Shown in pieces: positions 5,706 through 62,329 of a stretch of DNA of 64,000 nucleotides (position 1 is the stretch's first letter; each line of letters starts with the position of its first letter). Below the pieces are notes generated by a model. It was not told the DNA's origin and did not search any database. It saw only the letters and a list, made by a program, of their open reading frames with translations. This DNA is from a virus, in the IMG/VR virus record IMGVR_UViG_3300045988_098456, one strand, 5' to 3'. Position numbers and translations under genes: made by a program.

Positions 5706-6331
5706 TCTTCGTCCTCCTCAAAAGAAAATCCGTATTTGTTCTTGTAGAATTCTTCATCCATTCTGCGAGTATTCCGGTCATAACCTAAGATGTATGGTTC
5801 ACCTTCAAACGCAAAATACCCATACTTATTTATAAGATGGTACTTGGCATGATATGATTTTATCGGCATTTCTGAAAATTTGAATTTCGTCTGCTGCGGA
5901 ATACAAGATATAACTCGGAATTTCTCCATCTGTATAGTTCTTTTCCAGCTTTTCACCCTTTTGCCAATAGTTGCTTTATCATATGCTTTTTTTAAGTTAG
6001 CCAAACTATTCTTTTTAAGTCTTTCGATAGTTTCTTCTGAATGAGTAAGCTTTAGCCTTTTAGCAGCCTTGCCTACAGTAGACGGATGGCAACCTACAAT
6101 TACTGCAATCTCTCTGACCGAATGGTCAGGATATAGTTTTGTGATTTGTTCATCACGTTTCTTGTCGGGTTGTGGAACAAGTCTTTTTTGCTCGAACTTA
6201 CAATCGCATTCGTGCATTATTTTATACAAGAATTTAACGCTGACACCCATTCTTTCAGCCAACTTGTACCTTGGACGCTCATTAATATGAGCTTTGATGT
6301 AATCTATTGTTTCCTGTTCTATAATTCTCAT
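5690..6331 (-). CDS. double-HTH DNA-binding protein, tandem paralog 1
   Basis: 213 aa with the same architecture (..DYIKAHINERPR..., REIAVIVGCHPSTVGKAAKRLKL, GEPYILGYDRNTRR..EEFYKNKYGFSF). Overlaps paralog 2 by 16 nt. Confidence 0.55.
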   Translation of the reverse strand: MRIIEQETIDYIKAHINERPRYKLAERMGVSVKFLYKIMHECDCKFEQKRLVPQPDKKRDEQITKLYPDHSVREIAVIVGCHPSTVGKAAKRLKLTHSEETIERLKKNSLANLKKAYDKATIGKRVKSWKRTIQMEKFRVISCIPQQTKFKFSEMPIKSYHAKYHLINKYGYFAFEGEPYILGYDRNTRRMDEEFYKNKYGFSFEEDEECQED

Positions 6332-11142: not shown

Positions 11143-11496
11143 ATGAAAGAGTTAGGTTTTGATAAGCTATACGTAAAGTTTAGCAATTTATATTGTGAGT
11201 ATCGTAGTAGAAAGCAATTCTTGAAGTGGTTGAAATCCGCAAAGAATCTTTCTGAAGATTTGTTTGAAGTAACGCCAAGTGGAGGTGGTTCGTTTTATGT
11301 TGTGTTGTCTTTTGAAGAGATAAAGGATTTATTTCCGATTATGGAAAACTCATTGCCTAAGTATGAAAACGATATAAAGCAAGTTTTGTTGGCCATAAAG
11401 GAAATGGGACAGCTTGAAGTTGCAAAGATATGGCATGAGGATGATTGGGGTGACGGCTTTGTAGAGGATTTTTGTAAAACCCATGATATTTCATGA
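11143..11496 (+). CDS. hypothetical protein
   Basis: 117-aa ORF. Its stop overlaps the start of the downstream MTase (ATGA). Confidence 0.55.
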   Translation: MKELGFDKLYVKFSNLYCEYRSRKQFLKWLKSAKNLSEDLFEVTPSGGGSFYVVLSFEEIKDLFPIMENSLPKYENDIKQVLLAIKEMGQLEVAKIWHEDDWGDGFVEDFCKTHDIS

Positions 11497-12542
11497 AGAT
11501 ACAGACATTTGAACTATGTGCCGGATATGATTCTCAACTGATGGCTTTGGAACGACTGAAGAAGAAACATTCTGATTTCGATTACGAGTGCATCGGATGG
11601 TCTGAGATAGAGCCAAGCGCAATAACCTTGCATAACGCTTGTTTTCCTAGTCTGTCCGGTAAGAACTTTGGTGATATGACCAAGATAGATTGGAGCAAGG
11701 TTGCTGATTTTGACTTGCTGACATATTCAACACCTTGCCAGTCTGTTTCGCAAGCTGGAAAGCAGGAAGGAATAGAGGAGGGAAGTAACACCCGTTCTTC
11801 TATCCTTTGGTTCACAAGAAACGCCATTATTACCAAGAGACCGAAATACCTATTGATGGAGAATGTTGAGGCTTTGGTTCAAACAAAGTTCATTGGGTTC
11901 TTTAATAAGTGGCGCAAGGAATTAGAATCCTACGGATATGTTAACTATGCTAAGGTGGTAAATGCAGCCGACTGCGGTGTTCCTCAGAACAGAAAGCGTG
12001 TCTTCATGCTCTCTATACGAAATGATGGTGATAAGATAGATTATCATTTTCCGAGAAAGACAAAGCTGAAGAAACATTTGGTAGATGTCTTGGAGGAAAA
12101 TGTGGACGAAAAGTACTTTATGAGCGATGCTCTGCTATGTAAAGAGAAATTTGTGTCAAATGAATGGAAAGAGCCTATGAGTGCAGCTATAAGAACTCGT
12201 TCTGAAGGGAAGTGGATAAAAGGCGAAAAGCATAGTCCAAATGTCGAGCTTGGAAAGAATATAGCCAATACCATTACATCTGCGAGCAAGGACTCCTTGG
12301 TTGTGCTTGGAGAGACAAGGTTGTGCATTAGGCGTTTGACTCCGAGAGAACTCTTCCGTTTGATGGACGTTGACGAAGAATACATAGACAAGATGCTTGA
12401 AAGTGGAGTGTCGAAGTCAAGTCTTCAAAAGGCTGCTGGAAATTCGATTGTTGTAGCTTGCATGGAGAGGATATTGGAGGAACTTTGGTTTTCTGAGAGT
12501 AATGTTAAGGTCGCTGATGATGGTCAGCTATGCTTATTTTAA
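11493..12542 (+). CDS. DNA (cytosine-5)-methyltransferase
   Basis: 349 aa. Motifs FELCAGYDS (I), TYSTPCQSVSQAG (IV, PC), LMENVEAL (VI), GVPQNRKRVF (VIII) and AGNSIVV (X). Confidence 0.85.
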   Translation: MKIQTFELCAGYDSQLMALERLKKKHSDFDYECIGWSEIEPSAITLHNACFPSLSGKNFGDMTKIDWSKVADFDLLTYSTPCQSVSQAGKQEGIEEGSNTRSSILWFTRNAIITKRPKYLLMENVEALVQTKFIGFFNKWRKELESYGYVNYAKVVNAADCGVPQNRKRVFMLSIRNDGDKIDYHFPRKTKLKKHLVDVLEENVDEKYFMSDALLCKEKFVSNEWKEPMSAAIRTRSEGKWIKGEKHSPNVELGKNIANTITSASKDSLVVLGETRLCIRRLTPRELFRLMDVDEEYIDKMLESGVSKSSLQKAAGNSIVVACMERILEELWFSESNVKVADDGQLCLF

Positions 12543-12823
12543 ATATTGACGATATGATGTTTTTAAATAGTAACGAGAAAAAGGAGAAAGCAAATGCTAT
12601 CTCATACAAGATAGATGAGTACATCTGGGGACGAAAGGATTTTGTTACCGATTGCCCCTATGGTGAGAAAGGCAGATACACCAATGCAATTAATAAAGTT
12701 GGTGATTTGGGGTGTAACACTTGCGAATGGCAGGAAAGACACAACCCAAGTGCGCAAGTTGTGATGTGCTCCCATCCAAAGGTGGAGAAGAGCGAAGTTA
12801 AGAAACTTTTTAAGGATTTATGA
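12530..12823 (+). CDS. hypothetical Cys-rich protein
   Basis: 97 aa containing CPYGEKG...GCNTCEW...MCSHP, a possible zinc-binding motif. Confidence 0.5.
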   Translation: MLILNIDDMMFLNSNEKKEKANAISYKIDEYIWGRKDFVTDCPYGEKGRYTNAINKVGDLGCNTCEWQERHNPSAQVVMCSHPKVEKSEVKKLFKDL

Positions 12824-13483: not shown

Positions 13484-13777
13484 GAATTTTAGAAGTTGTT
13501 TTTGTTGCGTCCATTTCTTGGTAATACAAAATACAAGTATAGGAAATATTTTGAAATGCAAGAAAGGTAGCACTACGAAAGTATAAGGGAAGAGAGTGAC
13601 AGAAATTGCTGCAATGTGCAAAAACTACAAAGCGTGTGGCACACGTTAAAGAACATGGTAAGACGAATTTAAGGATACAGGTGATAGTATCAAGAGTGTT
13701 TGAGAAAGAGAAAAATGTAAAAACTTTAAAATAAATGGTAGAAATCATATTAAATAATTAAAATACATTAATAAAAT

Positions 13778-13888
13778 AAAGAAACACATTAAAACGCTTG
13801 CATGTTTCAAATATTCTTTGTATCTTTGCATTGTAATTAAGAAATAAAGGTTATTAATTTGAAAAGGTGAGACACACCATAAAAACTG
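13778..13888 (+). repeat. promoter-leader module, copy B
   Basis: aaagaaacacattaaaacgcTTGCat..N..tTATCTTTGcattgtaattaagaaa..GGTGAGACACACCataaaaactg. The -7 box is at 13821..13828 and the leader box at 13866..13878. Confidence 0.7.
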
Positions 13889-14227
13889 GTGATAATGACA
13901 AAGAAAGAAATTTTAAAACAATGGCTTGATGAGCCGAAAGTGAAATATTGTGGCAGTTCAAATTTTACGTTAGGTTATGGTGATGGCTGGGATTGGGTTA
14001 AAGATACTCTACGACCAGCTATCACGAAGAATGCGATGTTCCTCAGATTCTTGGAGCATGGCTTCCGTGAGATAGAAGAGTTTCTGAAATCCAAGTCCGG
14101 AAAACCTAGCGAGGATGATTGCACATTATATTCCGTTGGGTACAAAGATGGAGTCAAGGATGCTATGATAGCAATAAAGAATAGATTTGAAAATTTAAAA
14201 TTCAAGTTTCAGAAGCCATTAGGTTAG
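13889..14227 (+). CDS. hypothetical protein
   Basis: 112-aa ORF (GTG 13889, or ATG 13895), first gene after module copy B. Its 3' end abuts the omega-RNA scaffold. Confidence 0.55.
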   Translation: MIMTKKEILKQWLDEPKVKYCGSSNFTLGYGDGWDWVKDTLRPAITKNAMFLRFLEHGFREIEEFLKSKSGKPSEDDCTLYSVGYKDGVKDAMIAIKNRFENLKFKFQKPLG

Positions 14228-14470
14228 AACGATTATCCATTCAATCGTCCGGAGCGGATTACCCTCAGCCTCGAATGGAATTGGGAGCTACGTTAGGGAT
14301 GAATGTATAGGCACGTCAGGATGTCCGTCCAAGTTCTGTCCTCTGCGGTTCGTGGTTAAAAGTGGCGAAAGCTGCGGTGCTGCGGACAAGAAACCACCCC
14401 ATAACATTGGCGATGGGCGCACAACCCCACTTTGGTGGGAGATTTATTTATTAATTTAAATTGATTTTTT
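14228..14470 (+). ncRNA. candidate IscB omega-RNA (HEARO-type) scaffold
   Basis: 243-nt ORF-free, locally GC-enriched gap directly 5' of iscB. Helices: 14229-14234/14243-14248, 14322-14327/14383-14388, and 14352-14357/14392-14397, which crosses the previous one (pseudoknot). GNRA hairpin at 14364-14373 and cccac-tttg-gtggg at 14426-14439. The boundaries are approximate. Confidence 0.6.
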
Positions 14471-15718
14471 ATGATTTACGTAAGGAGCAAGGATGGTAAG
14501 GCATTGATGCCAAGCGAGCGTGGAGGGAGGATAGGCTATCTTCTTCGCCACGGCAAGGCTCATGTAGTCAGCCGTGTTCCGTTTGTCGTTCAGTTGGATT
14601 ATGAGAGCACCACCTATACGCAGGAAGTGAGCCTTGGCATTGATGCTGGTTCAAAGCATATTGGCGTTTCAGCTAGTTCCGAGAAGAAGGAGCTGCTTGC
14701 AGCGCAGGTTGAGTTAAGAATTGATGTTGTGAACTTGCTATCTACTCGCAGGGAGTTGAGACGAACAAGGCGAAACCGCAAGACACGTTATCGCAAGTCT
14801 CGTTTTGACAATCGAAAGCGAAAGGATGGTTGGCTAGCACCCAGTGTTGAACAAAAGATTGAGAGTCACTTGAAGGTTATCCGCTTGGTTCATAAGTTAC
14901 TTCCAATTACGAAGACCACAATCGAGGTTGCTCAGTTTGATGCTCAGAAAATCAAGAATCCAGACATCAATGGTGAGGAGTATCAGCAGGGTGAACAAAT
15001 GGGATTTTGGAACGTGAGGGAGTACGTCTTGGCTAGGGATGGGAACAAGTGTGTTCATTGCAAGGGTAAGAGTAAAGACCCAATCTTGAATGTTCACCAC
15101 TTGGAGAGCCGGAAGACAGGTGGCAATTCCCCTAGTAATCTCGTTACTCTATGTGAGACTTGTCACAAGGCTTACCATCGTGGGGAGTTCGAGTTGAAAA
15201 TCAAGCGTAGAAATTCCTTGCGTGATGCAGCCGTTATGAATATTATGCGTTGGGCGGTCTATGAGCGAGCGAAGGAAGAATTTGAGAACGTTCACTTGAC
15301 TTATGGTTATGTAACCAAGCATACTCGCATAGAGAATGGTATTGCCAAGACCCATGCAGCCGATGCTTTCTGTATTGCTAAGAATATTAACGCAATGAGG
15401 TTGAGTACTTTCTTTATGTGCCGTTGTGTTCCTAGCCATACGAGAAGGTTGCACGTTGCCAACCCTAAGAAGGGCGGCATCCGCAGAAGCACGATAGCCT
15501 CTCATAAGATAGGTAAGTCCCGCTTTCAGCGTTTCGACATGGTGCGTTGGAAGGGTAAGGAATGCTTTATCTTTGGCAGCACGCATGGTAATGTTGTTTT
15601 GCGTAAAATTAATGGCGTAAAGGTGCATGAAACGCAAGCTGTGAGTGCCAAAACGATAAAGTTTTTAAAAAGAATTAGAAATAACATTTTAGTGGAAGTA
15701 AGGGCTTCCGAAAATTGA
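14471..15718 (+). CDS. iscB: IscB RNA-guided endonuclease (OMEGA family, Cas9 ancestor type)
   Basis: 415 aa. PLMP-type N-terminus (KDGKALMPSERGG), RuvC-I (LGIDAGSKHIGVS), Arg-rich bridge helix (RRELRRTRRNRKTRYRKSRFDNRKRK), RuvC-II (TIEVAQFD), HNH (CVHCKGK..NVHHLESRKTGGNSPSNLVTLCETCHKAYH) and RuvC-III (KTHAADAFCIA). Confidence 0.85.
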   Translation: MIYVRSKDGKALMPSERGGRIGYLLRHGKAHVVSRVPFVVQLDYESTTYTQEVSLGIDAGSKHIGVSASSEKKELLAAQVELRIDVVNLLSTRRELRRTRRNRKTRYRKSRFDNRKRKDGWLAPSVEQKIESHLKVIRLVHKLLPITKTTIEVAQFDAQKIKNPDINGEEYQQGEQMGFWNVREYVLARDGNKCVHCKGKSKDPILNVHHLESRKTGGNSPSNLVTLCETCHKAYHRGEFELKIKRRNSLRDAAVMNIMRWAVYERAKEEFENVHLTYGYVTKHTRIENGIAKTHAADAFCIAKNINAMRLSTFFMCRCVPSHTRRLHVANPKKGGIRRSTIASHKIGKSRFQRFDMVRWKGKECFIFGSTHGNVVLRKINGVKVHETQAVSAKTIKFLKRIRNNILVEVRASEN

Positions 15719-15724
15719 ATTATT

Positions 15725-16015
15725 ATGGATTTAGGAAAGGCGATTAAGACAATGAGGGTAAGCAAGGGCTTGACCCAACGACAACTTGGTAAGGCTATCG
15801 GTTGTAGTGAGACAAATATGTTGTTTATGGAGACTGGAAGAACGTTTCCACGTAAGAGTAAGATTGATGCAATATGCAAGGTATTGGAGATTCCGATGTC
15901 ATATTTGTTGATGTTCTCTATTACACCGGATGATATTCCGGAAGATAAGCAGAGTTTGTACACAAGCATCGTTGAGCCGATGCGTAACGAATTTATTAGG
16001 GAGTTATTGCGATGA
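15725..16015 (+). CDS. XRE-family HTH transcriptional regulator
   Basis: 96 aa. GKAIKTMRVSKGLTQRQLGKAIGCSETNMLFMETGRTFP is a classic HTH_3 motif. Starts 7 nt after the iscB stop. Confidence 0.7.
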   Translation: MDLGKAIKTMRVSKGLTQRQLGKAIGCSETNMLFMETGRTFPRKSKIDAICKVLEIPMSYLLMFSITPDDIPEDKQSLYTSIVEPMRNEFIRELLR

Positions 16016-16235: not shown

Positions 16236-16415
16236 ATGGTTGAATTTGAGTATGAAGGCAGTATCATTTGGAAAAATTACGATTTCCATTTTTTGCCTTG
16301 TGTAGGAGATAAAGTTGTGATTAACAACCTTACATATAAGATTAAGTCTCGTGTGTTCAAGTGTGATGGGAAGATAGTTAAAGTGGTTTTAAAAAAGGTA
16401 GATAATGAAAGTTAG
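16236..16415 (+). CDS. hypothetical small protein (59 aa, below the ORF-track cutoff)
   Basis: Hand-translated as MVEFEYEGSIIWKNYDFHFLPCVGDKVVINNLTYKIKSRVFKCDGKIVKVVLKKVDNES. It fills the gap and overlaps the next start. Confidence 0.4.
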   Translation: MVEFEYEGSIIWKNYDFHFLPCVGDKVVINNLTYKIKSRVFKCDGKIVKVVLKKVDNES

Positions 16416-17862: not shown

Positions 17863-18119
17863 TGAGAATAGAACCTAGTGAGTTCTTGCCGATAGGTAAC
17901 GAATTTCAGAAAATCTTCGGTGTAAGCTTTGGAAAGTTTATAGATATGCGGTTTCTTTTGGCAAGAAAAGAACTGGTCTTCAACTTGCTGAAGTTCACAG
18001 ATTGGCTTGAAGAGTGCTATCCGGATGAGTGTTCCATAGATGGAGTGAGTTATAATGCTGTTGTCGAGCGAAAGTTTGGTAAGCGAGGTGTTAAAATGAT
18101 AAAGAAGATGATAGGATGA
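17862..18119 (+). CDS. hypothetical protein
   Basis: 85-aa ORF with overlaps at both ends. Confidence 0.5.
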   Translation: MRIEPSEFLPIGNEFQKIFGVSFGKFIDMRFLLARKELVFNLLKFTDWLEECYPDECSIDGVSYNAVVERKFGKRGVKMIKKMIG

Positions 18120-18820
18120 AGTATATGGGTAGTAAGGCTAGAATCGTGCATGAAATATTGCCGATTATGCTGGACAAAGAGCATGATACGTTTGTAGATG
18201 CTTTCTGTGGCGGCTGTAGCGTTATAGAGAATGTTCCGAACACGTATCGAAGGATTGCCAACGATAAGAATAGGTATCTTATCGAAATGTGGAAGTATCT
18301 TCAGAATGATGGGTTTGTCTTCAACCATATTAGTAAGACGTTGTATAACTTTGCACGAGACTGCTATCACGGAAAGAATAATTTCTTCACAGAGGCTGGT
18401 GTCGGACTAATTGGCTTTATGGCGAGCTTTAATGGTCGCTTCTTTGATGGTGGCTATAGCGGACATAATGTTGTCGGCAAGAACGGAAAGGCAAGAGATT
18501 ACATAAGGGAACAGATAGAAAACACAATGCGTGATGTGCCTCTCATCAAAGGTGTTGAGTTCTATAGTGGTAGCTATGATGAACTTGTGATACCGGATAA
18601 TAGTATAGTATATTGCGATTTGCCTTACAAAGCTACGAAAAAGTATGATGTATCAAAGAATTTCGATTACGAAAGATTCTATATATGGTGCATGGAAATG
18701 GCTAGAAGAGGTCATAAGGTATTTATCAGCGAATACCAGATGCCACAGGAGGTCAGATGTGTTTGGGAAAAGGAAGTAACCAATTCCCTTAACCCGAATA
18801 TTACAAACCAATTCCCTTAA
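18116..18820 (+). CDS. dam: Dam-type (D12 class) N6-adenine DNA methyltransferase, C-terminally frameshifted
   Basis: 234 aa. MKYMGSKARIVHEILPIM, FVDAFCGGCSV (FxGxG) and VYCDLPY (DPPY-type motif IV). The last ~11 conserved residues are displaced to the +1 frame by the 28-bp duplication at 18780..18835. Confidence 0.75.
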   Translation: MKYMGSKARIVHEILPIMLDKEHDTFVDAFCGGCSVIENVPNTYRRIANDKNRYLIEMWKYLQNDGFVFNHISKTLYNFARDCYHGKNNFFTEAGVGLIGFMASFNGRFFDGGYSGHNVVGKNGKARDYIREQIENTMRDVPLIKGVEFYSGSYDELVIPDNSIVYCDLPYKATKKYDVSKNFDYERFYIWCMEMARRGHKVFISEYQMPQEVRCVWEKEVTNSLNPNITNQFP

Positions 18821-20446: not shown

Positions 20447-20496
20447 GTTAACGTCAGTAAATTATCGGTGTTATATGTTATGATATATTAAAGAAT

Positions 20497-20608
20497 AAAA
20501 GAAACACATTAAAAAGTTTGCATATTTCAGATATTCTTTGTATCTTTGCATTGTAATTAAGAAACAAGGTTACTAATTTTAAAAAGGTGAGACACACCAC
20601 AAAAACTG
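20497..20608 (+). repeat. promoter-leader module, copy C
   Basis: Nearly identical to copy D by eye. -33 TTTGC, -7 TATCTTTG at 20541..20548, GGTGAGACACACC at 20586..20598. Confidence 0.7.
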
Positions 20609-26535: not shown

Positions 26536-26805
26536 ATGAAAATAAGACAAGCTAAGAAGATAATGAAGCAAGTCTATAAGACTAGATATTGGGCTTATAG
26601 GCAAGGCTATTATTGTGGCAAGAAAGATGCTGGAAAGCTAGCCGGAGACCATCGTTTGTTAAAGGCTATGCGTCTTACAAAGAAGTGGAAAAGCCGCAAG
26701 ATACGAAACGAAGCGAATAAAATGTTGAAGAAAAATCCGTTAAAACCGAGTGATCTTCAACGTAGTGATTTAAGATTAATGAGATATGGATGTAGCAAAG
26801 CTTAA
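26536..26805 (+). CDS. hypothetical protein (MKIRQAKKI family, copy 2)
   Basis: Internal ATG of ORF track 26440..26805 gives MKIRQAKKIMKQVYK. Tandem paralog of the previous gene. Confidence 0.5.
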   Translation: MKIRQAKKIMKQVYKTRYWAYRQGYYCGKKDAGKLAGDHRLLKAMRLTKKWKSRKIRNEANKMLKKNPLKPSDLQRSDLRLMRYGCSKA

Positions 26806-27121
26806 TCGGGAAATTTTAGGCGTAGATTTGGAATACAAAAACGTCTATATTGATGCGGAGAACACAAGAATGATACGTGCCAAATTACTTGATGGGTATT
26901 GCGATTTGGTTCGCACAGATGTGTGGACTGGTCGTGTGAATCATCCGGAAGAGCATGATATTGTAAAATATACGGCAATCTCTTGGTATAGAGAAGAATT
27001 TGTCGGTGGAGTTGATTTAGGTCGAAACTATATGCATGCTAAATATAAGTTCTTCGAGTTGGTTGTGAATAAAAAATATATTTTGGAAATGAAACATAAG
27101 AAAAATGAAAATGCTAGATAA
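26786..27121 (+). CDS. hypothetical protein
   Basis: 111-aa ORF. Confidence 0.5.
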   Translation: MDVAKLNREILGVDLEYKNVYIDAENTRMIRAKLLDGYCDLVRTDVWTGRVNHPEEHDIVKYTAISWYREEFVGGVDLGRNYMHAKYKFFELVVNKKYILEMKHKKNENAR

Positions 27122-43113: not shown

Positions 43114-43224
43114 AAAAGAAATACATTAAAAAGTTTGCATATTTCAGATATTCTTTGTATCTTTGCAATGTAATTAAGAAACAAGGTTATTAATTTGAAA
43201 AGGTGAGACACACCGTAAAAACTG
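43114..43224 (+). repeat. promoter-leader module, copy D
   Basis: -33 TTTGC, -7 TATCTTTG at 43158..43165, GGTGAGACACACC at 43202..43214, and ..gtaaaaactg ending 10 nt before ATG 43234. Confidence 0.7.
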
Positions 43225-43233
43225 TGATTCGTT

Positions 43234-46918: not shown

Positions 46919-47255
46919 TACAGGTATCTCTTCAATGACTATGTGGAGTGCATTAATGGGGGTAAAACGAAAGAAAGATTTGAATATTCCCAAAGACAAT
47001 AGTGACTTCCGTAGATGCTATGACATGGTAGAATACGGACACGTAACCTTGGATGAGCTACAGGTTATAAAGAAGCAATATCCTTGGTTTGCTCCTGTTG
47101 TTGACAATTGGAAGGAATTGTCTCTTTTGTTTGAAGAAGAGCTGGACAAACGCTTGTATATGCGAATCCGTCAGCTTTGCAAAGAATCAGACGCTATCCG
47201 GTATGAGGTAAGGGGAGGACTTTATTATGAAAGGGTGTTTTGGTATAATGTTTAA
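46878..47255 (+). CDS. hypothetical protein
   Basis: 125-aa ORF. An alternative start at 46893 would reduce the overlap. Confidence 0.5.
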   Translation: MNKQRMIEWIATCDTGISSMTMWSALMGVKRKKDLNIPKDNSDFRRCYDMVEYGHVTLDELQVIKKQYPWFAPVVDNWKELSLLFEEELDKRLYMRIRQLCKESDAIRYEVRGGLYYERVFWYNV

Positions 47256-47274: not shown

Positions 47275-47631
47275 ATGAATAAAGACAAATTAAAGGTCAG
47301 CTTTGAGATTGACCGCTACAAGGTAATTGGTATGCTTTCACGTAATTGTGAGAATGCTGAAGAGTACAACGAGATTATGGATATTCTTGAAGGCAAGAAT
47401 GAGTTTGTGCGTGATGCGAATGGTAACGAGGAACTTGCAAGCCGCATTTGCAATTATGCTTTGGACTCTATCTTGGTAGAGAATCCAGATTTGGCTCTCC
47501 GTAAGCGTTTGGATAAGGAACAGAAAGGCGAGGATGCTCCTGATGGAATTTCAAATGTTATCGAAATCAAAGGTGATGACGCAAAGAAACTTGTAGAAAC
47601 CCTTTGTGGTATTCTCCGCAAGGATAAATGA
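47275..47631 (+). CDS. hypothetical protein
   Basis: 118-aa ORF. Confidence 0.55.
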   Translation: MNKDKLKVSFEIDRYKVIGMLSRNCENAEEYNEIMDILEGKNEFVRDANGNEELASRICNYALDSILVENPDLALRKRLDKEQKGEDAPDGISNVIEIKGDDAKKLVETLCGILRKDK

Positions 47632-47695
47632 TGTAAAATACATCAAAAGAATATAAATAAACACTAAAACGCTTGCAAGAATAAGAAAAAATGCT

Positions 47696-47703
47696 TATCT
47701 TTG
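47696..47703 (+). promoter_or_regulatory. Bacteroidota-type -7 box (TATCTTTG) for the tRNA cluster
   Basis: aaacactaaaacgcTTGCaag...tgctTATCTTTGcatcg has the same upstream half as the repeated module. It lies ~145 nt upstream of the first tRNA. Confidence 0.55.
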
Positions 47704-47848
47704 CATCGTGTTTGAAACAGATGGCCTTCTGAGAGGTCGCTTCTACCATAATAAGTCAAGACTTAGGAGTTTACGGCAGGGGTTCCATGTTACCCAGCCC
47801 AGCTAGACTATAACAAGGAAACTCTAATTAGGGTGAGAATCCCTAGAT

Positions 47849-47921
47849 GCTGCATTAGACAAGTGGTTAAGTCGCCAGCTTTTCACGCTGGTATTCAAAG
47901 GTTCGAATCCTTTATGCAGTA
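47849..47921 (+). tRNA. tRNA-Glu (anticodon TTC)
   Basis: Hand fold: acceptor GCTGCAT/ATGCAGT (G1-U72 wobble), 3-bp D stem, anticodon arm CCAGC-TTTTCAC-GCTGG, T arm AAAGG-TTCGAAT-CCTTT. 73 nt. Confidence 0.8.
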
Positions 47922-47927
47922 CTAAAT

Positions 47928-47998
47928 TGCCCTATGGTGTAATGGTAACACTACAGGTTTTGGTTCTGTCATTAGTGGTTCGAATCCACTTGGGGCAA
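47928..47998 (+). tRNA. tRNA-Gln (anticodon TTG)
   Basis: Hand fold: acceptor TGCCCTA/TGGGGCA (U1-A72), D stem GTGT/ACAC, anticodon arm ACAGG-TTTTGGT-TCTGT, T arm AGTGG-TTCGAAT-CCACT. 71 nt. Confidence 0.8.
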
Positions 47999-48028
47999 CA
48001 AGATGGAATTGGTATATGTTCCACACAA

Positions 48029-48113
48029 GGTGCGATATTCAAGCGGTTAAAGAAGATAGACTGTAAATCTATTCCCATTGTGGGTTCGGTGAGTTCGAAT
48101 CTCCCTTGCACCA
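48029..48113 (+). tRNA. tRNA-Tyr (anticodon GTA), long variable arm
   Basis: Hand fold: acceptor GGTGCGA/TTGCACC, anticodon arm ATAGA-CTGTAAA-TCTAT, variable arm CCCA-TTG-TGGG, T arm GTGAG-TTCGAAT-CTCCC (one U-C mismatch). 85 nt. Confidence 0.75.
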
Positions 48114-48135
48114 CGAGTAACTTTTGTCGATTACG

Positions 48136-48208
48136 AGGAATGTAGCTCAGTAGTAGAGCACTTGGCTTGGTAACTAAGGGGGCGTTGGTGCAAATCCAAC
48201 CATTCCTT
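48136..48208 (+). tRNA. aberrant tRNA with 8-nt anticodon loop CTTGGTAA (Thr-GGT-like or Pro-TGG-like)
   Basis: Hand fold: perfect acceptor AGGAATG/CATTCCT, D arm GCTC-AGTAGTA-GAGC, anticodon stem CTTGG/CTAAG enclosing 8 nt, T arm GTTGG-TGCAAAT-CCAAC (G at position 55). 73 nt. Confidence 0.5.
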
Positions 48209-48211
48209 TAC

Positions 48212-48283
48212 GCTTTCGTAGCTCAGTGGCAGAGCATAGGATTTTTAATCCTAGGGTCGAAGGTTCGAATCCTTCCGTTGGCA
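48212..48283 (+). tRNA. tRNA-Lys (anticodon TTT) with two U-U mismatches in the acceptor stem
   Basis: Hand fold: D arm GCTC-AGTGGC-AGAGC, anticodon arm TAGGA-TTTTTAA-TCCTA, T arm GAAGG-TTCGAAT-CCTTC. Acceptor GCTTTCG/CGTTGGC pairs at only 5 of 7 positions. Confidence 0.6.
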
Positions 48284-48465
48284 CAATGATACACAAGAAG
48301 AGAGCCGTGATGTTTGTTTTGTTGGAATCTCGGACATCTGTCAACGGGAAAACGTAGGAAGCAGATGGAGTGAATAAAGTTGTGAATAAGCTTATGAACT
48401 AGGTGAACAAGCGGAATGGCTCTCTTTTGTGCTTCATTTGATGGTTTAACGAAAAATTGAAGAAT

Positions 48466-48803: not shown

Positions 48804-48919
48804 ATATATAATAAGGTATATAAAGAGGGTAATTGTTAATAAGGTGCATATATCAGTTATCGTAAGTTAAATAAATAAAGAAAAACATTAAAAAGCTTGC
48901 ATGTTTCAAAACTTATTTG

Positions 48920-48927
48920 TATCTTTG
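48920..48927 (+). promoter_or_regulatory. Bacteroidota-type -7 box (TATCTTTG), diverged copy of the repeated module
   Basis: aaaaacattaaaaagcTTGCatgtttcaaaacttatttgTATCTTTGcatcg, with a diverged leader box GGTGAGAGCGACACC at 48984..48998. Confidence 0.6.
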
Positions 48928-49034
48928 CATCGTCAATCAAGATAAGTTGGTTGATTTGCCGAGTGACAAGTTTCACTCAATAAGGTGAGAGCGACACCAA
49001 GGGGTAAGACCCAAAACAACTAGCACAATTGATT

Positions 49035-52172: not shown

Positions 52173-53261
52173 ATGGAAAAATCACTTTATTTTCAGTTGG
52201 TCAATAAATACTTCCCACAACTTGTTGCAAGTGTAGTAGAGAAGTTGAACGGAAAGAATCAGACTGCATTGACCTATATGTACCGAGACCACTTGACTAA
52301 CACATATAGTCAGGACGGACGATGGGCATCAATTACTGCGGAATACACACGAGTTGCTGCTGATGTTGTATCAATGGATGCAGAACTTCCATTGAAGAGC
52401 CGTGATAAGGTTTCAACCGCTGAGGGTCAAATCCCAAAGGTTGGTATGAAACTTTACATGTCAGAGAAGCAGCTTAAGGATTTGGATAACATGATTGCGC
52501 AACGTTTGCCTCAGCCACAGATTTTGCGTAATTTGTTTGCAGACCTTCCTCGTTGTATTCAGGCGGTTTACGAGCGTATTGAAGATATGTTCCTCAGTGA
52601 GCTGTCAACAGGTGTAGCTTTGGCGACTCGTTCCGGTGGTACTGGTGTCCGAGTTGATGTAGGTTTTGCCGAGAAGAACAAGTTCGGTCACGGTGCTAAG
52701 GCTTGGGACGCAGAGGATGCAACTCCTCTTGATGACATCCAATTGGTTTACGACAAGGCGATGGAAGACCAAAATACCATCACTACTTGTTATCTTGATG
52801 ATTACACAATCAAGTTGCTTGGCAAGAACAAGCAGGTTCGTGCTCAGTTTGCCTTCAATCAAGGCATTGCAACCAATAGTAATAGCAATATTCCTATTTT
52901 GAGCTTTGAGCAGATTGCTTCTATCTTCAGAAATAAGTGGCAGACTAACTTGGTACGTGTAGCCCGTACAATCAAGACCGAGATTAACGGCAAGAAGGGA
53001 ACACACAACCCTTGGGCTAAGGGTCACATGACCTTTACATGCTATGACAACTTGGGTGATTTGTTCTGGACTAACGTAGCCGAAGCTACAAGACCAGTTG
53101 CAGGTGTTACTTATCAGTCAGCCGATGAGTATATCTTGGCTAGCCGTTATTCTACTAACGACCCACTCCGTGAGTTCACCAGCTCACAAGCAATGGTTGT
53201 TCCTATCTTGAATAACGTTGATGCCATCTACTCTTTGGACTCAACACAAGCGGTAGGTTAG
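52173..53261 (+). CDS. probable major capsid protein
   Basis: 362 aa. Size and position (scaffold - small protein - this gene - connector genes) fit a lambda gpE-like major capsid. No motif was verified. Confidence 0.55.
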   Translation: MEKSLYFQLVNKYFPQLVASVVEKLNGKNQTALTYMYRDHLTNTYSQDGRWASITAEYTRVAADVVSMDAELPLKSRDKVSTAEGQIPKVGMKLYMSEKQLKDLDNMIAQRLPQPQILRNLFADLPRCIQAVYERIEDMFLSELSTGVALATRSGGTGVRVDVGFAEKNKFGHGAKAWDAEDATPLDDIQLVYDKAMEDQNTITTCYLDDYTIKLLGKNKQVRAQFAFNQGIATNSNSNIPILSFEQIASIFRNKWQTNLVRVARTIKTEINGKKGTHNPWAKGHMTFTCYDNLGDLFWTNVAEATRPVAGVTYQSADEYILASRYSTNDPLREFTSSQAMVVPILNNVDAIYSLDSTQAVG

Positions 53262-57146: not shown

Positions 57147-58253
57147 ATGTATAAAAACGAGCACAAGTTCCCTTATAGATGGACTAAAAAAGATGCTAAT
57201 TTCACAAAAGACAAAGGTAAGGTGATGTCTTGCTTTTGTTGTGGAGGTGGAAGTTCCTTTGGTTACAAACTAGCTGGCTACGATGTTGTAGCCTGTAATG
57301 AGATAGACCCAAAGGTTATGAAGATGTACTTGAAGAATCACGATGTCAAGTATTCTTTCAATTGTGATATTCGTGAGTTGATTGCCAATATCAATATGGG
57401 GGGGCATATTATGAAAGAAGAATTGCATAATCTGGATATATTGGATGCTAGTTTCCCTTGTTCGGTATTCAGTATTGCAGGTGATCGTGAAAAGGCTTGG
57501 GGAAAGGAAAAAGTATTCAGAGAAGGTCAGAAGGCACAAAGGCTTGACGATTTGGCTTTCTACTCTATCGACCTCGCTAAAGAACTAAAGCCAAAGGTAG
57601 TTGTTTTTGAGAATGTCCAAGGTTTGTTACAAGGTGAAGCTGTCGAGTACGTAAAAGAGATTTATAAGCAGATGGATGATGCCGGATATATCTTGCAACA
57701 TTGGCTTCTCAATGCACGTAACATGGGTGTTCCTCAAAACAGACCTAGGGTGTTTTTTATCGGGTTACGTAAAGACCTTTGCGAGCCGTTTATGGTTCAG
57801 AAGGATTTATTCGAGCGAGTGCCTAAGATTGATATGGACTTTAATGAGAAAGAAATTGTCTTGGATGAGTTTTCTGACTATAGTGGAAGACAGATTCCTA
57901 AAGGAGTGATGAAGTATTGGGTGCATAGAAATGAGAAAGATAATTCTATCGGTGATATTGTCAAGCGGATGGATAATCGTCTTTCTATGTTTAATAATAT
58001 GTTTCTTAAAAAGAATAAGGTATGCAATACTATATCAGCAATGGAAGATAGGCTTGTGTATTTTGATAATCCAAGCTATATTTCTGCGCATGATACGATT
58101 TTAGCATCAACATTTCCTGAAGATTATGATTTCGATGGCATGAAGCCTTGGTTTGCTTGCGGAATGTGTGTTCCTCCAGTTATGATGGCTAATGTTGCTA
58201 CGAGAATCTGGGATTGTTGGTTATCAAAGATTAAAAAGGAGGAATGCGCATGA
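57147..58253 (+). CDS. DNA (cytosine-5)-methyltransferase (second copy)
   Basis: 368 aa. CFCCGGGSSFG (I), ASFPCSVFSIAG (IV), VVFENVQGL (VI), GVPQNRPRVFFIG (VIII) and GMCVPPVM (X). Confidence 0.8.
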   Translation: MYKNEHKFPYRWTKKDANFTKDKGKVMSCFCCGGGSSFGYKLAGYDVVACNEIDPKVMKMYLKNHDVKYSFNCDIRELIANINMGGHIMKEELHNLDILDASFPCSVFSIAGDREKAWGKEKVFREGQKAQRLDDLAFYSIDLAKELKPKVVVFENVQGLLQGEAVEYVKEIYKQMDDAGYILQHWLLNARNMGVPQNRPRVFFIGLRKDLCEPFMVQKDLFERVPKIDMDFNEKEIVLDEFSDYSGRQIPKGVMKYWVHRNEKDNSIGDIVKRMDNRLSMFNNMFLKKNKVCNTISAMEDRLVYFDNPSYISAHDTILASTFPEDYDFDGMKPWFACGMCVPPVMMANVATRIWDCWLSKIKKEECA

Positions 58254-58987
58254 TAACAGCAAGTATGACTTCGGGTGATATACGTAGAGTACGAAACTTA
58301 GATGAAGCTAGAATCTATGAGTTTCAGATGCGAAAAGCTAATGAGCTTAAACGTGAAATGAGAAAGCAGAACGTAAGGCAAATAACAAAGACCTTTGAGT
58401 TTGCTACACCGAATGCCGATTATTTCATCGTTGTCGGTGTAAAACATGGCGATGTATTTGCTTCTGGTGTGTTCATTTATCTGAAGGAAACCAACGAGTA
58501 TATTCCTATGAGTAGAAACGAGGGGTATAGCGAAGATTGTTTTGCTATGAGCGTTCATTTTCTGAAGAGATTTGCAGAAAGGTTTTTGAAAAAAGACTTA
58601 CCGATTGCCAAGATATTGCAAAAGATATATACATCGTTTACAGGTGCGGTTCAGCTCTATAGTGATGGCAAGACAAGAAGGGTGGTATTTGCAATTCCGG
58701 AAGGGCTTATACTCACAGAATACGAGCAAGAAAAGCATATCATCCACTACAAAACCTTTGTAAGCATGGATATGCTAAAGAAGACACAGAAGCGAAGTTA
58801 CGAGAAGATAAGTGCATTTCTCATGGAGTCTTGTCAGCAAATAGCTAAAGCAAGAGAAACCGGAAATGACGAAAGGCTGTGCGTTGTGTACAGAAGGTTT
58901 TACAATGATATTGATTTGCTAGATACAAAGGAGGCGCAAGCCATATATTCAAGTTTCTTTGAAAAAGGAGGTAACAATGAAAGATAA
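58244..58987 (+). CDS. hypothetical protein
   Basis: 247-aa ORF overlapping the MTase stop. Confidence 0.55.
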   Translation: MRMITASMTSGDIRRVRNLDEARIYEFQMRKANELKREMRKQNVRQITKTFEFATPNADYFIVVGVKHGDVFASGVFIYLKETNEYIPMSRNEGYSEDCFAMSVHFLKRFAERFLKKDLPIAKILQKIYTSFTGAVQLYSDGKTRRVVFAIPEGLILTEYEQEKHIIHYKTFVSMDMLKKTQKRSYEKISAFLMESCQQIAKARETGNDERLCVVYRRFYNDIDLLDTKEAQAIYSSFFEKGGNNER

Positions 58988-59480
58988 ATGTATAACAAGG
59001 TTTCTTGGTGATATAAAGCCTATAAAGAATTACGAAAGGTATTATGTTAGCAAGCTGGGACATGTTTTTACTATTGGGAGAACGTCTCAATTAAAGGAAA
59101 TCGCTCCTTGCAAGACACCAAAAGGTTATCTGAAGGTATGGCTTTACAAGAATGGAAAGCGCAAGATGTTTTATATCCATCGTTTGGTAGCTCAGGCTTT
59201 CTTGGAGAATCCAGAAGCGTTGCCGATGGTGAATCATAAGGATTTCGACAAGACGAATAATGATGTAGACAACTTGGAGTATTGCACCGCAAGATACAAT
59301 GTGATTTATTCTGCTATAGCAAAGAAAACATCTTCCGAATACTTGGGTGTGACTTGGAATAAGAGTGTAAGAAAATGGCAAGCGCAGTATCAGATAGGTA
59401 AAAAGAAAATATATATAGGTTGCTTTGATACGCAACAAGAGGCTCATGAAGCTTATGTTAACGCTATAAAAGAGATTTGA
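58977..59480 (+). CDS. HNH homing-type endonuclease with C-terminal AP2 DNA-binding domain
   Basis: First ATG of ORF track 58959. YIHRLVAQAFLENPEALPMVNHKDFDKTNNDVDNLEY is HNH_3 type. YLGVTWNKSVRKWQAQYQIGKKKIYIGCFDTQQEAHEAY is AP2. Confidence 0.7.
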   Translation: MKDKCITRFLGDIKPIKNYERYYVSKLGHVFTIGRTSQLKEIAPCKTPKGYLKVWLYKNGKRKMFYIHRLVAQAFLENPEALPMVNHKDFDKTNNDVDNLEYCTARYNVIYSAIAKKTSSEYLGVTWNKSVRKWQAQYQIGKKKIYIGCFDTQQEAHEAYVNAIKEI

Positions 59481-59481
59481 T

Positions 59482-60195
59482 ATGCTTGAATTTGATAGAA
59501 TATACAATTCCGACTGCATAGAAGGAATGAAACAAATAGAGAGCGGGAAAGTAGATTTAATTGTTACTGACCCACCATATTGTATCTCCTATAAGACGGG
59601 ATGGAGAGCAGACGACCATCGTTTTTCGAAGGAAATACTCAATGACGATAATGAGCAATTGATTATTGATTATATGAGCGAATGCTACCGGATTTTGAAG
59701 GATGATAGTGCTGCTTATATCTTCTGTAGTGCAAAGACCTTGGACTTTTTTATGCAACAAGCGAGGAACGCAGGGTTTACCATTAAGAATGTGATAATTT
59801 GGCGAAAGAACAACCATACGGCTGGAGATTTAGATGCGCAATATGGTCAATGTTACGAGCCAATCCTGTACTTAAATAAAGGCAGACGAATCATAAACGG
59901 AAAGCGTTTGGAGGATGTGTGGGACTTTGATAGAGTTCCATCAGATAAATTGGTACATCAGAACGAGAAACCAATCCCCTTGCTTATGCAATGTATCTTG
60001 AAATCATCGAACGAAGGAGATTTGGTGTTTGATGGCTTTATGGGCAGCGCAAGTACTGCTCTGGCTTGTATGCGGACAAATCGGAATTACCTTGGTTTTG
60101 AATTGGATGAGGATTATTTCAATGTGGCACAAAGAAGAATTAAGGAAGAAATGTTAAATCAAAAAGATATGTTTGGATATGCTGGAGTTAAATAG
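59482..60195 (+). CDS. beta-class N6-adenine/N4-cytosine DNA methyltransferase
   Basis: 237 aa. DLIVTDPPY (motif IV) is N-terminal and FDGFMGSASTALAC (motif I) is C-terminal. Confidence 0.8.
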   Translation: MLEFDRIYNSDCIEGMKQIESGKVDLIVTDPPYCISYKTGWRADDHRFSKEILNDDNEQLIIDYMSECYRILKDDSAAYIFCSAKTLDFFMQQARNAGFTIKNVIIWRKNNHTAGDLDAQYGQCYEPILYLNKGRRIINGKRLEDVWDFDRVPSDKLVHQNEKPIPLLMQCILKSSNEGDLVFDGFMGSASTALACMRTNRNYLGFELDEDYFNVAQRRIKEEMLNQKDMFGYAGVK

Positions 60196-60895
60196 AATTT
60201 ATCAAGGTGATTGTCGAAAGCTTTTAAAGCTGATTGATAGTGATAGCATAGACCTCGTATGTTCTGATGTGGCTTATCCTGTTCAGTCTAGGGGTGGCTC
60301 AGGGAGTATGGGAGGATATTGGACGGAATCTCAAACAAGAAAGGGCAAGATATTCAAGAATAACGATATTGATATTTCGGACTACATCAATGATTTGTAC
60401 CGGATATTAAAGGACAGGTCGCATTGCTATCTGATGTGTAATGATTATAATTTAATGCACTTTCTTGATGTGGTCGGAAAAAGTGAGTTCCATTTTACCA
60501 AATGCTTAATATGGGATAAGTGCGCAAAAATATGTGGCCGCTATTATATGGCACAGAAAGAGTATATCATCATGCTACGCAAAGGTAGTGATAGGCCGAT
60601 AAATGAATGTGGTACGTCTGACATTCTGAGTGTTCCTATTCCAACCAACAAGCGCAAGGATAAGGATGGTTTGATTAATCAGACTGAAAAACCTGTAAAG
60701 TTGATGGAGACATTAATCAGAAACTCGACAAATGTTGGTGATGTTGTTCTAGACCCATTCATGGGGAGCGGTACAACGGCAAGAGCTTGCGTAAACCTTG
60801 AAAGAAAGTATATAGGTTTTGAGATAGACCAGCGACAAGTCGATTTTGCCAATAACGAATTAAAGAACATGAGTAGGCAATTAAGTCTTTTTTAA
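60179..60895 (+). CDS. beta-class DNA methyltransferase homolog with degenerate catalytic motif
   Basis: First ATG of ORF track 60173. DLVCSDVAYPV stands in place of (D/S/N)PPY. Motif I LDPFMGSGTTARAC is intact. Confidence 0.6.
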   Translation: MLELNRIYQGDCRKLLKLIDSDSIDLVCSDVAYPVQSRGGSGSMGGYWTESQTRKGKIFKNNDIDISDYINDLYRILKDRSHCYLMCNDYNLMHFLDVVGKSEFHFTKCLIWDKCAKICGRYYMAQKEYIIMLRKGSDRPINECGTSDILSVPIPTNKRKDKDGLINQTEKPVKLMETLIRNSTNVGDVVLDPFMGSGTTARACVNLERKYIGFEIDQRQVDFANNELKNMSRQLSLF

Positions 60896-60905
60896 AACTA
60901 TTGGT

Positions 60906-61124
60906 ATGTGCAAGGTGTTTTGTTGTAATCCTGTTGTAAGAAATGGGAATAAAGAAACAACGGATGCTCTTATAAGAGCTATGAGAGGCGAAGCCTTAAA
61001 ACGAGGGTTGGTACGTGATGAATTGATAGGTTTTTGCAACCGATTCTTGAGAGAAGGCGAAATCAAAGCTTGTATAGAGCATTCGCTAGATAATTTCAAA
61101 CGTTATTTTTGGAGGTATCATTGA
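60906..61124 (+). CDS. hypothetical protein
   Basis: 72-aa ORF. Confidence 0.45.
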   Translation: MCKVFCCNPVVRNGNKETTDALIRAMRGEALKRGLVRDELIGFCNRFLREGEIKACIEHSLDNFKRYFWRYH

Positions 61125-61125
61125 T

Positions 61126-61755
61126 ATGAGAAGAAGAAAGTTGAACAAGTCTCCAGTGCTAGGCTTCTGCGGATTTGTTATCGGTTACGAATGCAAGGAA
61201 AAGGGAATAAAGCTGATGGAGTGCGATAAGGCGCAAGCAGATGCAATCATAGTTCCTCATCACTTTTCACACAAGGTAACGAAGAATAGTTGCTTGAATC
61301 TTTTGGTATTGTATAAGGATAAGATAAGTGGTGCAATGCAAATAGGGTATGGAATCCGACCGCACATCAAGACTGAAAAGTGCGAAGTGTTGGATTACCA
61401 TCAAGTGAGGGAATTTGACAGAATGTGGTTGTCTGATGATATGCCAAAGTTTAGCGAGACGATTTGCCTATCTCTCTTGCATAAGTATATTAGGGCAACA
61501 CATAAGGAAATCAAGTACCTTATTTCTTATGCCGATACGTCCATAGGTAACAAGGGAACTATATATAAAGCTGCAAACTATGAGCATATTGATACCATTA
61601 AGGCAGATTTCTATGTGTTACCAAGTGGTGAGCGTGTGCATCCGGTTACTATGTGGCATCGGCACAAGACAAGAGCATGGGAGGTTCTGACGGAACTATA
61701 CCCAGGAATAAAAAAGGCAGAAGGGTTTCAACTTAAATTTCTGAAGAAGTTATGA
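61126..61755 (+). CDS. Mom-like GNAT-fold DNA-modification acyltransferase (tentative)
   Basis: 209 aa. AIIVPHHFSHK, REFDRMWLSDDMPKFSETICLSLL and YLISYADTSIGNKGTIYKAANYEHI resemble the HHY..., ELxR...N.eS and SYAD..GH.G.IY.A.N pattern I recall for the Mom family. Confidence 0.45.
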   Translation: MRRRKLNKSPVLGFCGFVIGYECKEKGIKLMECDKAQADAIIVPHHFSHKVTKNSCLNLLVLYKDKISGAMQIGYGIRPHIKTEKCEVLDYHQVREFDRMWLSDDMPKFSETICLSLLHKYIRATHKEIKYLISYADTSIGNKGTIYKAANYEHIDTIKADFYVLPSGERVHPVTMWHRHKTRAWEVLTELYPGIKKAEGFQLKFLKKL

Positions 61756-61970
61756 AGAAAAGAAATAAATATATTCCTTGTCATTTGCATCCAGATCCTG
61801 AGCATTGGGTTAGAAAAGGTCAATCTTGGAAGGCGAAGGTCGCTTATGAAAGCGAGGATGATGCTTGGGAGTTTCTGAATCAGAATCCGAAGTTACGGGC
61901 ACAAGGTATGGCGGTGTATCGGTGTAGGATATGCAACAAATATCATATATGGCACAAGAATAACAAATAA
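61752..61970 (+). CDS. small zinc-ribbon-like protein
   Basis: 72 aa with CHLHPDPEH ... CRICNKYHIWH. ATGA overlap with the Mom-like gene. Confidence 0.45.
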   Translation: MKKRNKYIPCHLHPDPEHWVRKGQSWKAKVAYESEDDAWEFLNQNPKLRAQGMAVYRCRICNKYHIWHKNNK

Positions 61971-61985
61971 AAAATATAAACAGCA

Positions 61986-62267
61986 ATGATAGTAATAAAA
62001 ATCAAAACATGGAAAGACTGGAAGAAGGACTTTCTTGATTGGGTGCAAGCACCTAGGCGCAGTACTTGCAAGGAGTACGTAGATTATATGGAGGCTTTAC
62101 AAAATCAGGTTCTCTACAAAATAATAAACGACACTTGCGATAAATACGGAAATATGCGTGAGGATCAAATTCAAGACATCACCGAGGCAGTCGAGAGATG
62201 CGTTGCTGAGTGTGCCAAAGAAACACGCAAGTTAATCGATGAATGTCAGCCCGCAAAATTATTCTAA
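61986..62267 (+). CDS. hypothetical protein
   Basis: 93-aa ORF. Confidence 0.5.
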   Translation: MIVIKIKTWKDWKKDFLDWVQAPRRSTCKEYVDYMEALQNQVLYKIINDTCDKYGNMREDQIQDITEAVERCVAECAKETRKLIDECQPAKLF

Positions 62268-62329
62268 GACTGCAACTTTCATTACACTGCCGTGAAATTG
62301 TTTAACTGATAGATTTAAAACAACAAAGT

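Follow-up and report, generated by a model that had tools for sequence, protein, structure and literature searches.

The IMG/VR virus record IMGVR_UViG_3300045988_098456 is a DNA stretch of 64,000 nucleotides (nt), which is referred to here as the window. It derives from a tailed gut phage, as it encodes a tape measure protein, major capsid protein E (52173-53261), a GH108 lysin, many DNA methylases and Mom. A locus at 14,228-15,718 was first flagged in this phage as a gene for IscB, the RNA-guided nuclease ancestral to Cas9, with an omega-RNA encoded 5' of it. Here we describe this locus as a mobile element of approximately 1.52 kb on the + strand (14200..15718), composed of an omega-RNA scaffold and iscB, and consider how it may spread among related phages.

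The iscB gene and its omega-RNA

The iscB gene (14471..15718, + strand) is an intact open reading frame (ORF) of 415 aa. Its product scored 354 bits against the NCBIfam model NF040563, 'RNA-guided endonuclease IscB' (guided_IscB), for which the cut-off is 175, and Pfam placed RRXRR on residues 2-174 (4.4e-60) and HNH on residues 194-237 (8.6e-8). The protein also matched solved IscB structures, including OgeuIscB (E 1e-47), with the RuvC-I, RuvC-II, HNH and RuvC-III motifs aligned. The RuvC motifs read GIDAG (residues 56-60, with D58), IEVAQFD (151-157, with E152) and THAADAF (294-300, with H295 and D298), and those of the HNH domain read CVHC (194-197), VHHLE (208-212, with H209/H210) and NLVTLCETCH (223-232). 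The Arg-rich bridge helix is RRELRRTRRNRKTRYRKSRF (residues 93-112), and the N-terminal PLMP-type motif reads ALMP at residues 11-14. Alignment with characterised IscB proteins, as proposed in the initial annotation, bore out the complete set of catalytic motifs that it had read in this ORF. The domain order and catalytic residues are the same as in OgeuIscB and the HEARO nucleases, although the window protein is shorter (415 versus 496 aa). D58, H209 and H210 have the same numbering as in the IS605-family IscB of Geobacillus stearothermophilus, where these are the residues mutated to inactivate GstIscB.

The profile models end at about residue 305. The alignment with Geobacillus IscB (50% identity, full length) continues to residue 415 and includes the C-terminal region, the putative domain for interaction with the target-adjacent motif (TAM). 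The ORF was intact in all 24 iscB copies examined (404-421 aa), and the ratio of nonsynonymous to synonymous divergence (dN/dS) was 0.07-0.13, at dS 0.3-1.5, between the window copy and the 12 copies with a finite estimate. The iscB gene is therefore under strong purifying selection. RNA-guided, TAM-dependent cleavage of double-stranded DNA is predicted for the 415-aa protein, with indirect support from this selection and from the ATRR motif beside guide matches (below).

The omega-RNA scaffold (14200..14449, + strand) starts with AUUCAA and consists of a helix P1 around two hairpins, the HEARO core and a 3' hairpin. Both the scaffold and the element begin at 14200 and not, as first annotated, at 14228. 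The region is GC-enriched as described before, with 55% GC in the omega-RNA core, 45% in iscB and 34-37% in the flanks. The HEARO covariance model (Rfam RF02033) matched 14247..14425 of the + strand over its full length (model positions 1-211 of 211, E 9.5e-12), with a score of 62.7 bits. Sister copies scored 71-78 bits and canonical relatives 105-153 bits; the low scores in the clade of the window copy arise because the Rfam model misplaces the remodelled P1. This helix is formed by GUUYCGG (14206-12) and CCGRAGC (14250-56); 7 sequences show exchanges between CG and UA, and the enclosed stretch is about 41 nt long, compared with 42 nt in the Rfam consensus P1.

A consensus fold of 19 copies (RNAalifold) contained 71 pairs, of which 14 showed compensatory changes and almost none were broken. 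The GNRA hairpin of the initial annotation, which reads GAAA, was supported by the alignment of copies. The crossing pair of hexamer helices predicted along with it was set aside as a native fold: the strands are complementary, but each helix is disrupted in 8 of the 19 homologues, and both conflict with the helix 14347-55/14380-88, in which three pairs carry eight double changes. A terminator-like hairpin, CCCAC-TTTG-GTGGG, followed by a U-rich run (14426..14449, + strand) is probably the 3' end of the omega-RNA; three of its stem pairs covary in 7 of the 19 copies, and the ATG of iscB follows on the same strand after 21 nt.

The annotated repeat of a phage promoter module upstream of the unit was found again. 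One copy lies at 13763..13888 on the + strand and contains the TAnnTTTG-type motif TATCTTTG. The module is about 115-125 nt long, its copies (13763-13888, 20483-20608, 43115-43228 and 48867-48942) are 86-91% identical, and there is a weaker one at 47625-47709. The module stops just 5' of gene starts and contains TATCTTTG. It looks like a promoter of the type found in Bacteroidota, which gives a clue to the host phylum, and the copy at 13763..13888 is a likely source of read-through into the omega-RNA. It is followed by a phage ORF of 112 aa (13889..14227, + strand) without a Pfam family.

Limits of the element, its predicted guide and its predicted target

The 5' boundary of the element is sharp. 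Similarity among loci always begins at ATTCAAGTT (window 14200), whereas the upstream flanks are unrelated; 16 such sites were initially recognised, a number that rose to about 20 when 5' ends were scanned, and all of them break at ATTCAAG. On the other side, similarity stops around CTTCCGAAAGTTGAAT (window ~15720), every copy reads AT(A/T/C)A after ...GTTGA, and the 3' terminus of the window copy lies somewhere within 15715-15724. On either side of the element the window is collinear with a related faecal phage, MT835610.1, which has 12 nt, ATAGGAGGTTAA, in place of window 14200-15724; the junction ATTATT (15719..15724, + strand) occupies the place of these 12 nt in the window. The last nine codons and the stop of the upstream ORF come from the element, and in unoccupied alleles this ORF ends ...AAT TTA AAA TAG. 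The downstream phage gene, an HTH_31/HTH_3 regulator (15725..16015, + strand), is outside the element and has the same position in unoccupied alleles.

The gap of 6 nt between the iscB stop and the ATG at 15725 had been taken to leave no room for a right end. This view was not upheld, since a subterminal hairpin, GGAAG-TAAGGG-CTTCC (15694..15709, + strand), and the terminus at about 15718 lie inside the last iscB codons, and a relative with such ends has been inserted cleanly. The hairpin is kept in most copies elsewhere; no covariation was seen in it, and we assign it as a transposon-end hairpin by analogy with canonical relatives, in which the hairpin has a comparable position. The clean insertion was found at locus L031, where a 1516-nt copy stands between TATTCAGGT and ATAACAATTT, which are directly joined in 73 other phage contigs. 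No target duplication is present; the guide precedes the copy and ATAAC follows it. Clean insertion between the guide and an ATAA motif is a signature of IS200/IS605-type insertion.

The sequence from 14200 onwards is constant among copies, the flank before it varies and the scaffold starts there; for these reasons the 16 nt at 14184..14199 (+ strand), GATTTGAAAATTTAAA, are the predicted guide, the length being assumed by analogy. This guide is flank DNA outside the element and overlaps the 3' end of the upstream ORF, as anticipated in the initial annotation. The 16 nt 5' of the Rfam match (14231-14246, GATTATCCATTCAATC) were also considered and rejected as a guide: they are constant in all copies, have no meaningful target and belong to the scaffold.

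A perfect match to GATTTGAAAATTTAAA followed by ATAGGAGG was found in 98 IMG/VR phage contigs. These are unoccupied alleles of the window site, in which the guide match is followed by ATAGGA, whereas in the window it is followed by ATTC. The unoccupied allele hence has an intact predicted target for the nuclease, which the insertion has disrupted in the occupied one, as expected of a homing element. The only matches found for the window guide were at this same site in sister phages. Ten sites have an unoccupied allele that matches the guide with 0-1 mismatches, and in 7 of them the four nt after the match are ATRR, compared with 3% of positions in the window as a whole (P = 2e-9). The AT at the start of this motif could be ambiguous, because the element also begins with these two bases; positions 3-4, however, are purines at 9 of the 10 sites (P = 3e-4), and the element has TC there. 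ATRR is the likely TAM of the window IscB, to judge from these alleles. It agrees with the GstIscB TAM TTCAT (= ATGAA), and the window target ATAGGA fits the motif NWRRNA that is given for OgeuIscB (PMC12660989).

Guides of IscB copies at other sites in related phages have near-perfect targets (1-2 mismatches) in the window. These, with the TAM-like motif that follows each, are 11751-11766 (AAGG), 16236-16251 (ATGA), 18109-18124 (ATGG), 26876-26891 (ATGG), 47187-47202 (ATGA) and 58249-58264 (ATGA), and several of the mismatches are at TAM-proximal guide positions. At site s9 (equivalent to window 16252-16255), L007, L008-L010, L015-L018 and L029 read ACGA for ATGA after a perfect guide match. 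This change is a synonymous TAT-to-TAC substitution that would spoil the TAM, and it may be a resistance allele to a drive.

No Y1, serine or DDE transposase was detected in a Pfam scan of 79 window ORFs, in agreement with the annotated absence of TnpA. A motif regex for HUH/Y1 TnpA, a crude and weak test, matched none of the ORFs of the window and of loci L001-L074 with flanks of +/-4 kb, and no TnpA-sized candidate adjoined the cellular IscB loci (Geobacillus, Sharpea, Lachnospiraceae and Prevotellaceae). BLAST found no further copy or remnant of the element elsewhere in the window. The missing TnpA, the guide in the flank and the upstream promoter had all been regarded as unusual. They are the published norm: about 1.5% of iscB genes have tnpA nearby, and IscB elements take their guide from the flank and need an upstream promoter on the same strand (Meers 2023, 10.1101/2023.03.14.532601). 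The location in a phage is likewise not exceptional, as viral HEARO/IscB loci were reported in 2022, when more than 16% of HEARO/IscB contigs were assigned to viruses or prophages (Goltsman 2022, PMC9755519).

Distribution and structure of related copies

IMG/VR contained 33 phage loci with an IscB 82-95% identical to the window copy. Among species-representative genomes, one copy of 85% identity was found (L052, on a 15.6-kb contig binned as Lachnospiraceae), the others being at most 59% identical (Prevotellaceae); 59% is also the identity of the nearest clearly cellular relative. The clade thus appears essentially phage-only in the collections searched. The relatives among GenBank phages were two unannotated faecal phage records only.

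At the window site, the occupied junction was found in four exact-match contigs and a few variants, against the 98 unoccupied ones. The phages with flanks most similar to those of the window (95.5/98.2%, 94.0/98.4% and 93.5/99.0% identity, left/right) are unoccupied. The flanks of other occupied alleles were 93.6/95.4% and 83.0/96.3% identical, and at least three flank haplotypes are occupied. All occupied alleles share the 3' junction GTTGAATTATT|ATGG. The unoccupied alleles are ancestral and not excision products, because they contain 12 nt that are absent from the occupied alleles. Judged from these flanks, the distribution of the element at this site is not explained by vertical descent. 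MT835610.1, which is empty here, has its own 87%-identical copy at 11183-12708, about 11.5 kb away and probably at site s2.

A second IscB family, with 54% identity, occurs in other IMG/VR phage contigs (L035 and L038/L039). Its HEARO RNAs score above the gathering score and its hairpins are identical at both ends. L035 (8787-9021, 3724-3946) has an extra stand-alone HEARO copy.

Apart from L031, the occupied alleles replace wild-type DNA from the guide match to the start of the next gene. At the window site (s1) the replaced DNA is the 12 nt ATAGGAGGTTAA. At most sites, what has been replaced is the remainder of the gene that contains the guide, and two of these genes encode DNA methyltransferases. 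The replaced DNA is 145 nt with a 59-aa ORF at s9, 26892 to ~27102 (~211 nt; the rest of ORF 26786..27121) at s2, ~250 nt at s4, 769 nt (two-thirds of the C5 methylase 11493-12542) at s5, 1175 nt (the D12 methylase 18116-18820 and more) at s7 and ~670 nt at s8. One guide-side deletion is recent: L005, with 97.8% identity to L029 and the same 3' junction, lacks 250 nt of 5' flank. Guides have ATGG, ATGA or ATAG beside them, whereas the 3' end is followed by ATAA or ATTA; because of this difference, one-ended TnpA strand transfer with guide-side deletions was set aside as a general rule. TAM-side deletion by microhomology fits only s7, where the 3' junction is inside a GAAGTT microhomology.

Miniature elements of about 335 nt, which contain both ends and the omega-RNA without iscB, were found at four loci (L002, L132, L138 and L256). 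They carry an extra hairpin, CATCCC-TTCG-GGGATG (L002 copy, 5946-6280), and occupy the same junctions as full-length copies; the L002 miniature stands beside a full-length copy. Contig 104928 (L138/L258) has a second 5' end, which is cut off at the locus end. Miniature elements would add guides, and the L002 genome would thereby have several. In other phages, copies at site A (L002, L005, L008-L010, L015 and L029) have degenerate termini and an intact iscB. Their 5' ends read ATCCTAG, GATTTTG or TTTCAAG, and ATAGTATCTATAAG replaces the 3' hairpin. Such copies may be immobilised yet still homing.

Some other features of the window deserve mention. An ORF for a protein-only homing endonuclease (NUMOD4, HNH_3 and AP2; 58977-59480) adjoins site s8 and is surrounded by a block of DNA methylase genes (57147-63022). 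Just after ORF 58244-58987, the gene replaced at s8 in L019/L030, the intergenic sequence ATTCAAGTTTC (58947-58957) matches the element 5' terminus over 11 nt, for which about 0.03 matches are expected by chance per window, and it may be a footprint. A whole-window Rfam scan at the gathering score returned tRNAs only. In a cluster of five tRNAs (47849-48284), ARAGORN gave the one at 48135-48209 a four-base anticodon, 'tggt', and no amino acid, while Rfam scored it as a normal tRNA (59 bits).

Proposed homing between phages and its alternatives

The results indicate that the unit is a non-autonomous IscB element of the IS200/IS605 type (ISC-type). The initial annotation had regarded it as domesticated, a view that does not agree with its presence and absence among near-identical phages (98 unoccupied alleles against a handful of occupied ones) and its roughly 20 different 5' flanks. 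A role in homing or in competition between phages, also named there, is the best supported of the functions then proposed. We consider homing between co-infecting phages to be the best explanation of the data, with a probability of about 0.6.

In the proposed process, transcription from the phage promoter module (13763-13888) would read through ORF 13889-14227 into the element and produce an omega-RNA with a phage-flank guide of about 16 nt (14184-14199) and a scaffold from 14200 to about 14449. IscB, translated from 14471, would bind this RNA. The genome that carries the element would not be cut, because its guide match precedes ATTC. During co-infection, the unoccupied allele of a sister phage (GATTTGAAAATTTAAA and then ATAGGA) would be cut, and repair of the break from the occupied genome would copy the element in. 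Homing of this kind would act as a gene drive and also handicap the competitor. Jumps to new sites would need a Y1 TnpA in trans, probably supplied by the host.

The first alternative, which we regard as unlikely but the most serious, is that IscB has only a restorative role: an ordinary insertion sequence (IS) landed via a host TnpA, IscB re-installs it after excision, and its location in a phage is inconsequential. This mechanism has been published (10.1101/2023.03.14.532601), clean TAM-adjacent insertion is typical of TnpA, and the low site occupancy fits it. However, excision should be rare without a TnpA in 64 kb, and yet iscB is strongly selected in all copies examined; a single insertion allele occurs on several flank haplotypes, and the clade is nearly confined to phage contigs. 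The spread over haplotypes, the intact and selected iscB and the lack of a phage TnpA together favour nuclease-driven homing or the cutting of competitors over a restorative role.

Cutting of competitors might also occur without conversion. The nuclease would then cut sister phages and lower their yield, and the element would spread by ordinary recombination and the fitness gain of its carriers. The same guide and TAM relations speak for this as for homing, and competitor killing is known for protein homing endonucleases of phages (the PhiPA3 intron endonuclease). The two are indistinguishable from sequence data alone, but the shared 3' junction on different flank haplotypes indicates a moving allele, and we consider killing without conversion improbable. 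Least probable of all is a domesticated, immobile nuclease that serves as a weapon against the DNA of hosts, plasmids or unrelated phages: although the nuclease is intact and selected, lies behind a phage promoter and has degenerate termini in some site-A copies elsewhere (L002, L008 and L029), its guide is the local phage flank with matches found only at the same site in sister phages, so that the suggested use against host or plasmid DNA has no support. In addition, the unit is polymorphic and occupies many sites, and its ends are conserved and kept by miniature derivatives.

Several observations weigh against the interpretation that we prefer. Roughly 5-8% of related contigs are occupied at the site, and any drive must therefore be weak, young or countered. 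The divergence of 8-22% between copies at different sites shows that transposition is not recent. Neither the 64-kb window nor, in the crude motif scan, the flanks of L001-L074 gave a TnpA, and the window allele is not a clean insertion, as ATTATT replaced 12 nt. The ends are also atypical. Their hairpins differ (AGCC../..GGCT versus GGAAG../..CTTCC), and the termini form a 23-nt inverted repeat, the arms of which (14199..14221 and 15699..15721, + strand) are 87% complementary, unlike those of canonical IS200/IS605 relatives; the canonical arrangement is seen in L053 and L058 and in relatives from Sharpea/Clostridiales and Geobacillus. As for the RNA, P1 of the window copy contains an A.C mismatch, the HEARO score of this copy is below the gathering score of 83, although the model aligned over its full length, and the single-sequence folding energy is not unusual (z = +0.49), so that stability gives no evidence for an RNA.

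Homing may be part of a broader process, in which an IscB lineage confined to phages would spread through gut phage populations as a gene drive that is RNA-guided and independent of TnpA, overwriting accessory genes of sister phages. We put this forward tentatively and think it rather doubtful as a whole. Under such a drive, only alleles whose new guide precedes an ATRR TAM in the wild-type gene would persist. Guides would be renewed by deletions beside the omega-RNA end, as seen once (L005, from an L029-type allele), and omega-RNA-only miniature elements would bring extra guides and create a natural multi-guide state.

The element is a phage-restricted addition to the known family of IscB/omega-RNA insertion sequences and is ordinary in kind. 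It shares with the Geobacillus IscB elements an upstream omega-RNA whose scaffold is the transposon end, a guide outside the element, the lack of tnpA, an ATGAA-type TAM and a distal end near or within the end of iscB. It differs from them in that its host replicon is a phage and not a chromosome, P1 is remodelled (HEARO scores of 63-78 versus 153 bits), the end hairpins are unlike each other and the termini are 23-nt inverted repeats, and most alleles replace adjacent phage DNA rather than interrupt it. The previous survey of Goltsman 2022 (PMC9755519) covered viral occurrence only, with no empty sites, flank-matching guides or mobility in phage populations.

Among other systems, the Seg and Mob homing endonuclease genes of T-even phages, which are associated with marker exclusion, also lie between conserved phage genes. 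Like them, the window element is predicted to cut an empty allele when a relative without it co-infects, and to bring flanking DNA along when it is copied into that allele, but recognition would be by an RNA guide and a TAM instead of a protein, and self would be distinguished from non-self by the insertion, which splits the guide match from the TAM. A TnpB-driven, TnpA-independent gene drive of IS605 has been shown in plasmids (Mears et al. 2025, as cited in PMC13565253). It resembles the process proposed here in its nuclease-dependent, TnpA-independent spread into unoccupied homologous replicons, whereas our case concerns IscB and phages and is drawn from natural variation only. TnpA-independent homing has been listed as theoretical for phages ('transposon non-restorative homing', 2026 review PMC13565253). 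No paper that describes IscB homing within phage populations was found in the literature searched, the coverage of which was incomplete. Miniature derivatives of IS200/IS605 and stand-alone omega-RNAs are known, and the elements of about 335 nt with both ends and without iscB are like them; what differs is their location in phage genomes, at junctions that full-length copies also use.

About 98% of iscB genes have no adjoining transposase, and how such elements persist and spread is debated. Two features of the present element, its inverted-repeat termini and its gene-replacing alleles, are not canonical. Phage accessory genes such as those for DNA methyltransferases can be displaced by IscB elements, and the locus supplies a compact IscB of 415 aa with ATRR as its likely TAM. 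The locus and its relatives provide a natural test system of closely related phages with and without the element, in which the guides are known, the target and TAM are visible in unoccupied alleles, and about 20 sites as well as miniature derivatives are available. With this system, direct tests of RNA-guided homing between viruses become possible.

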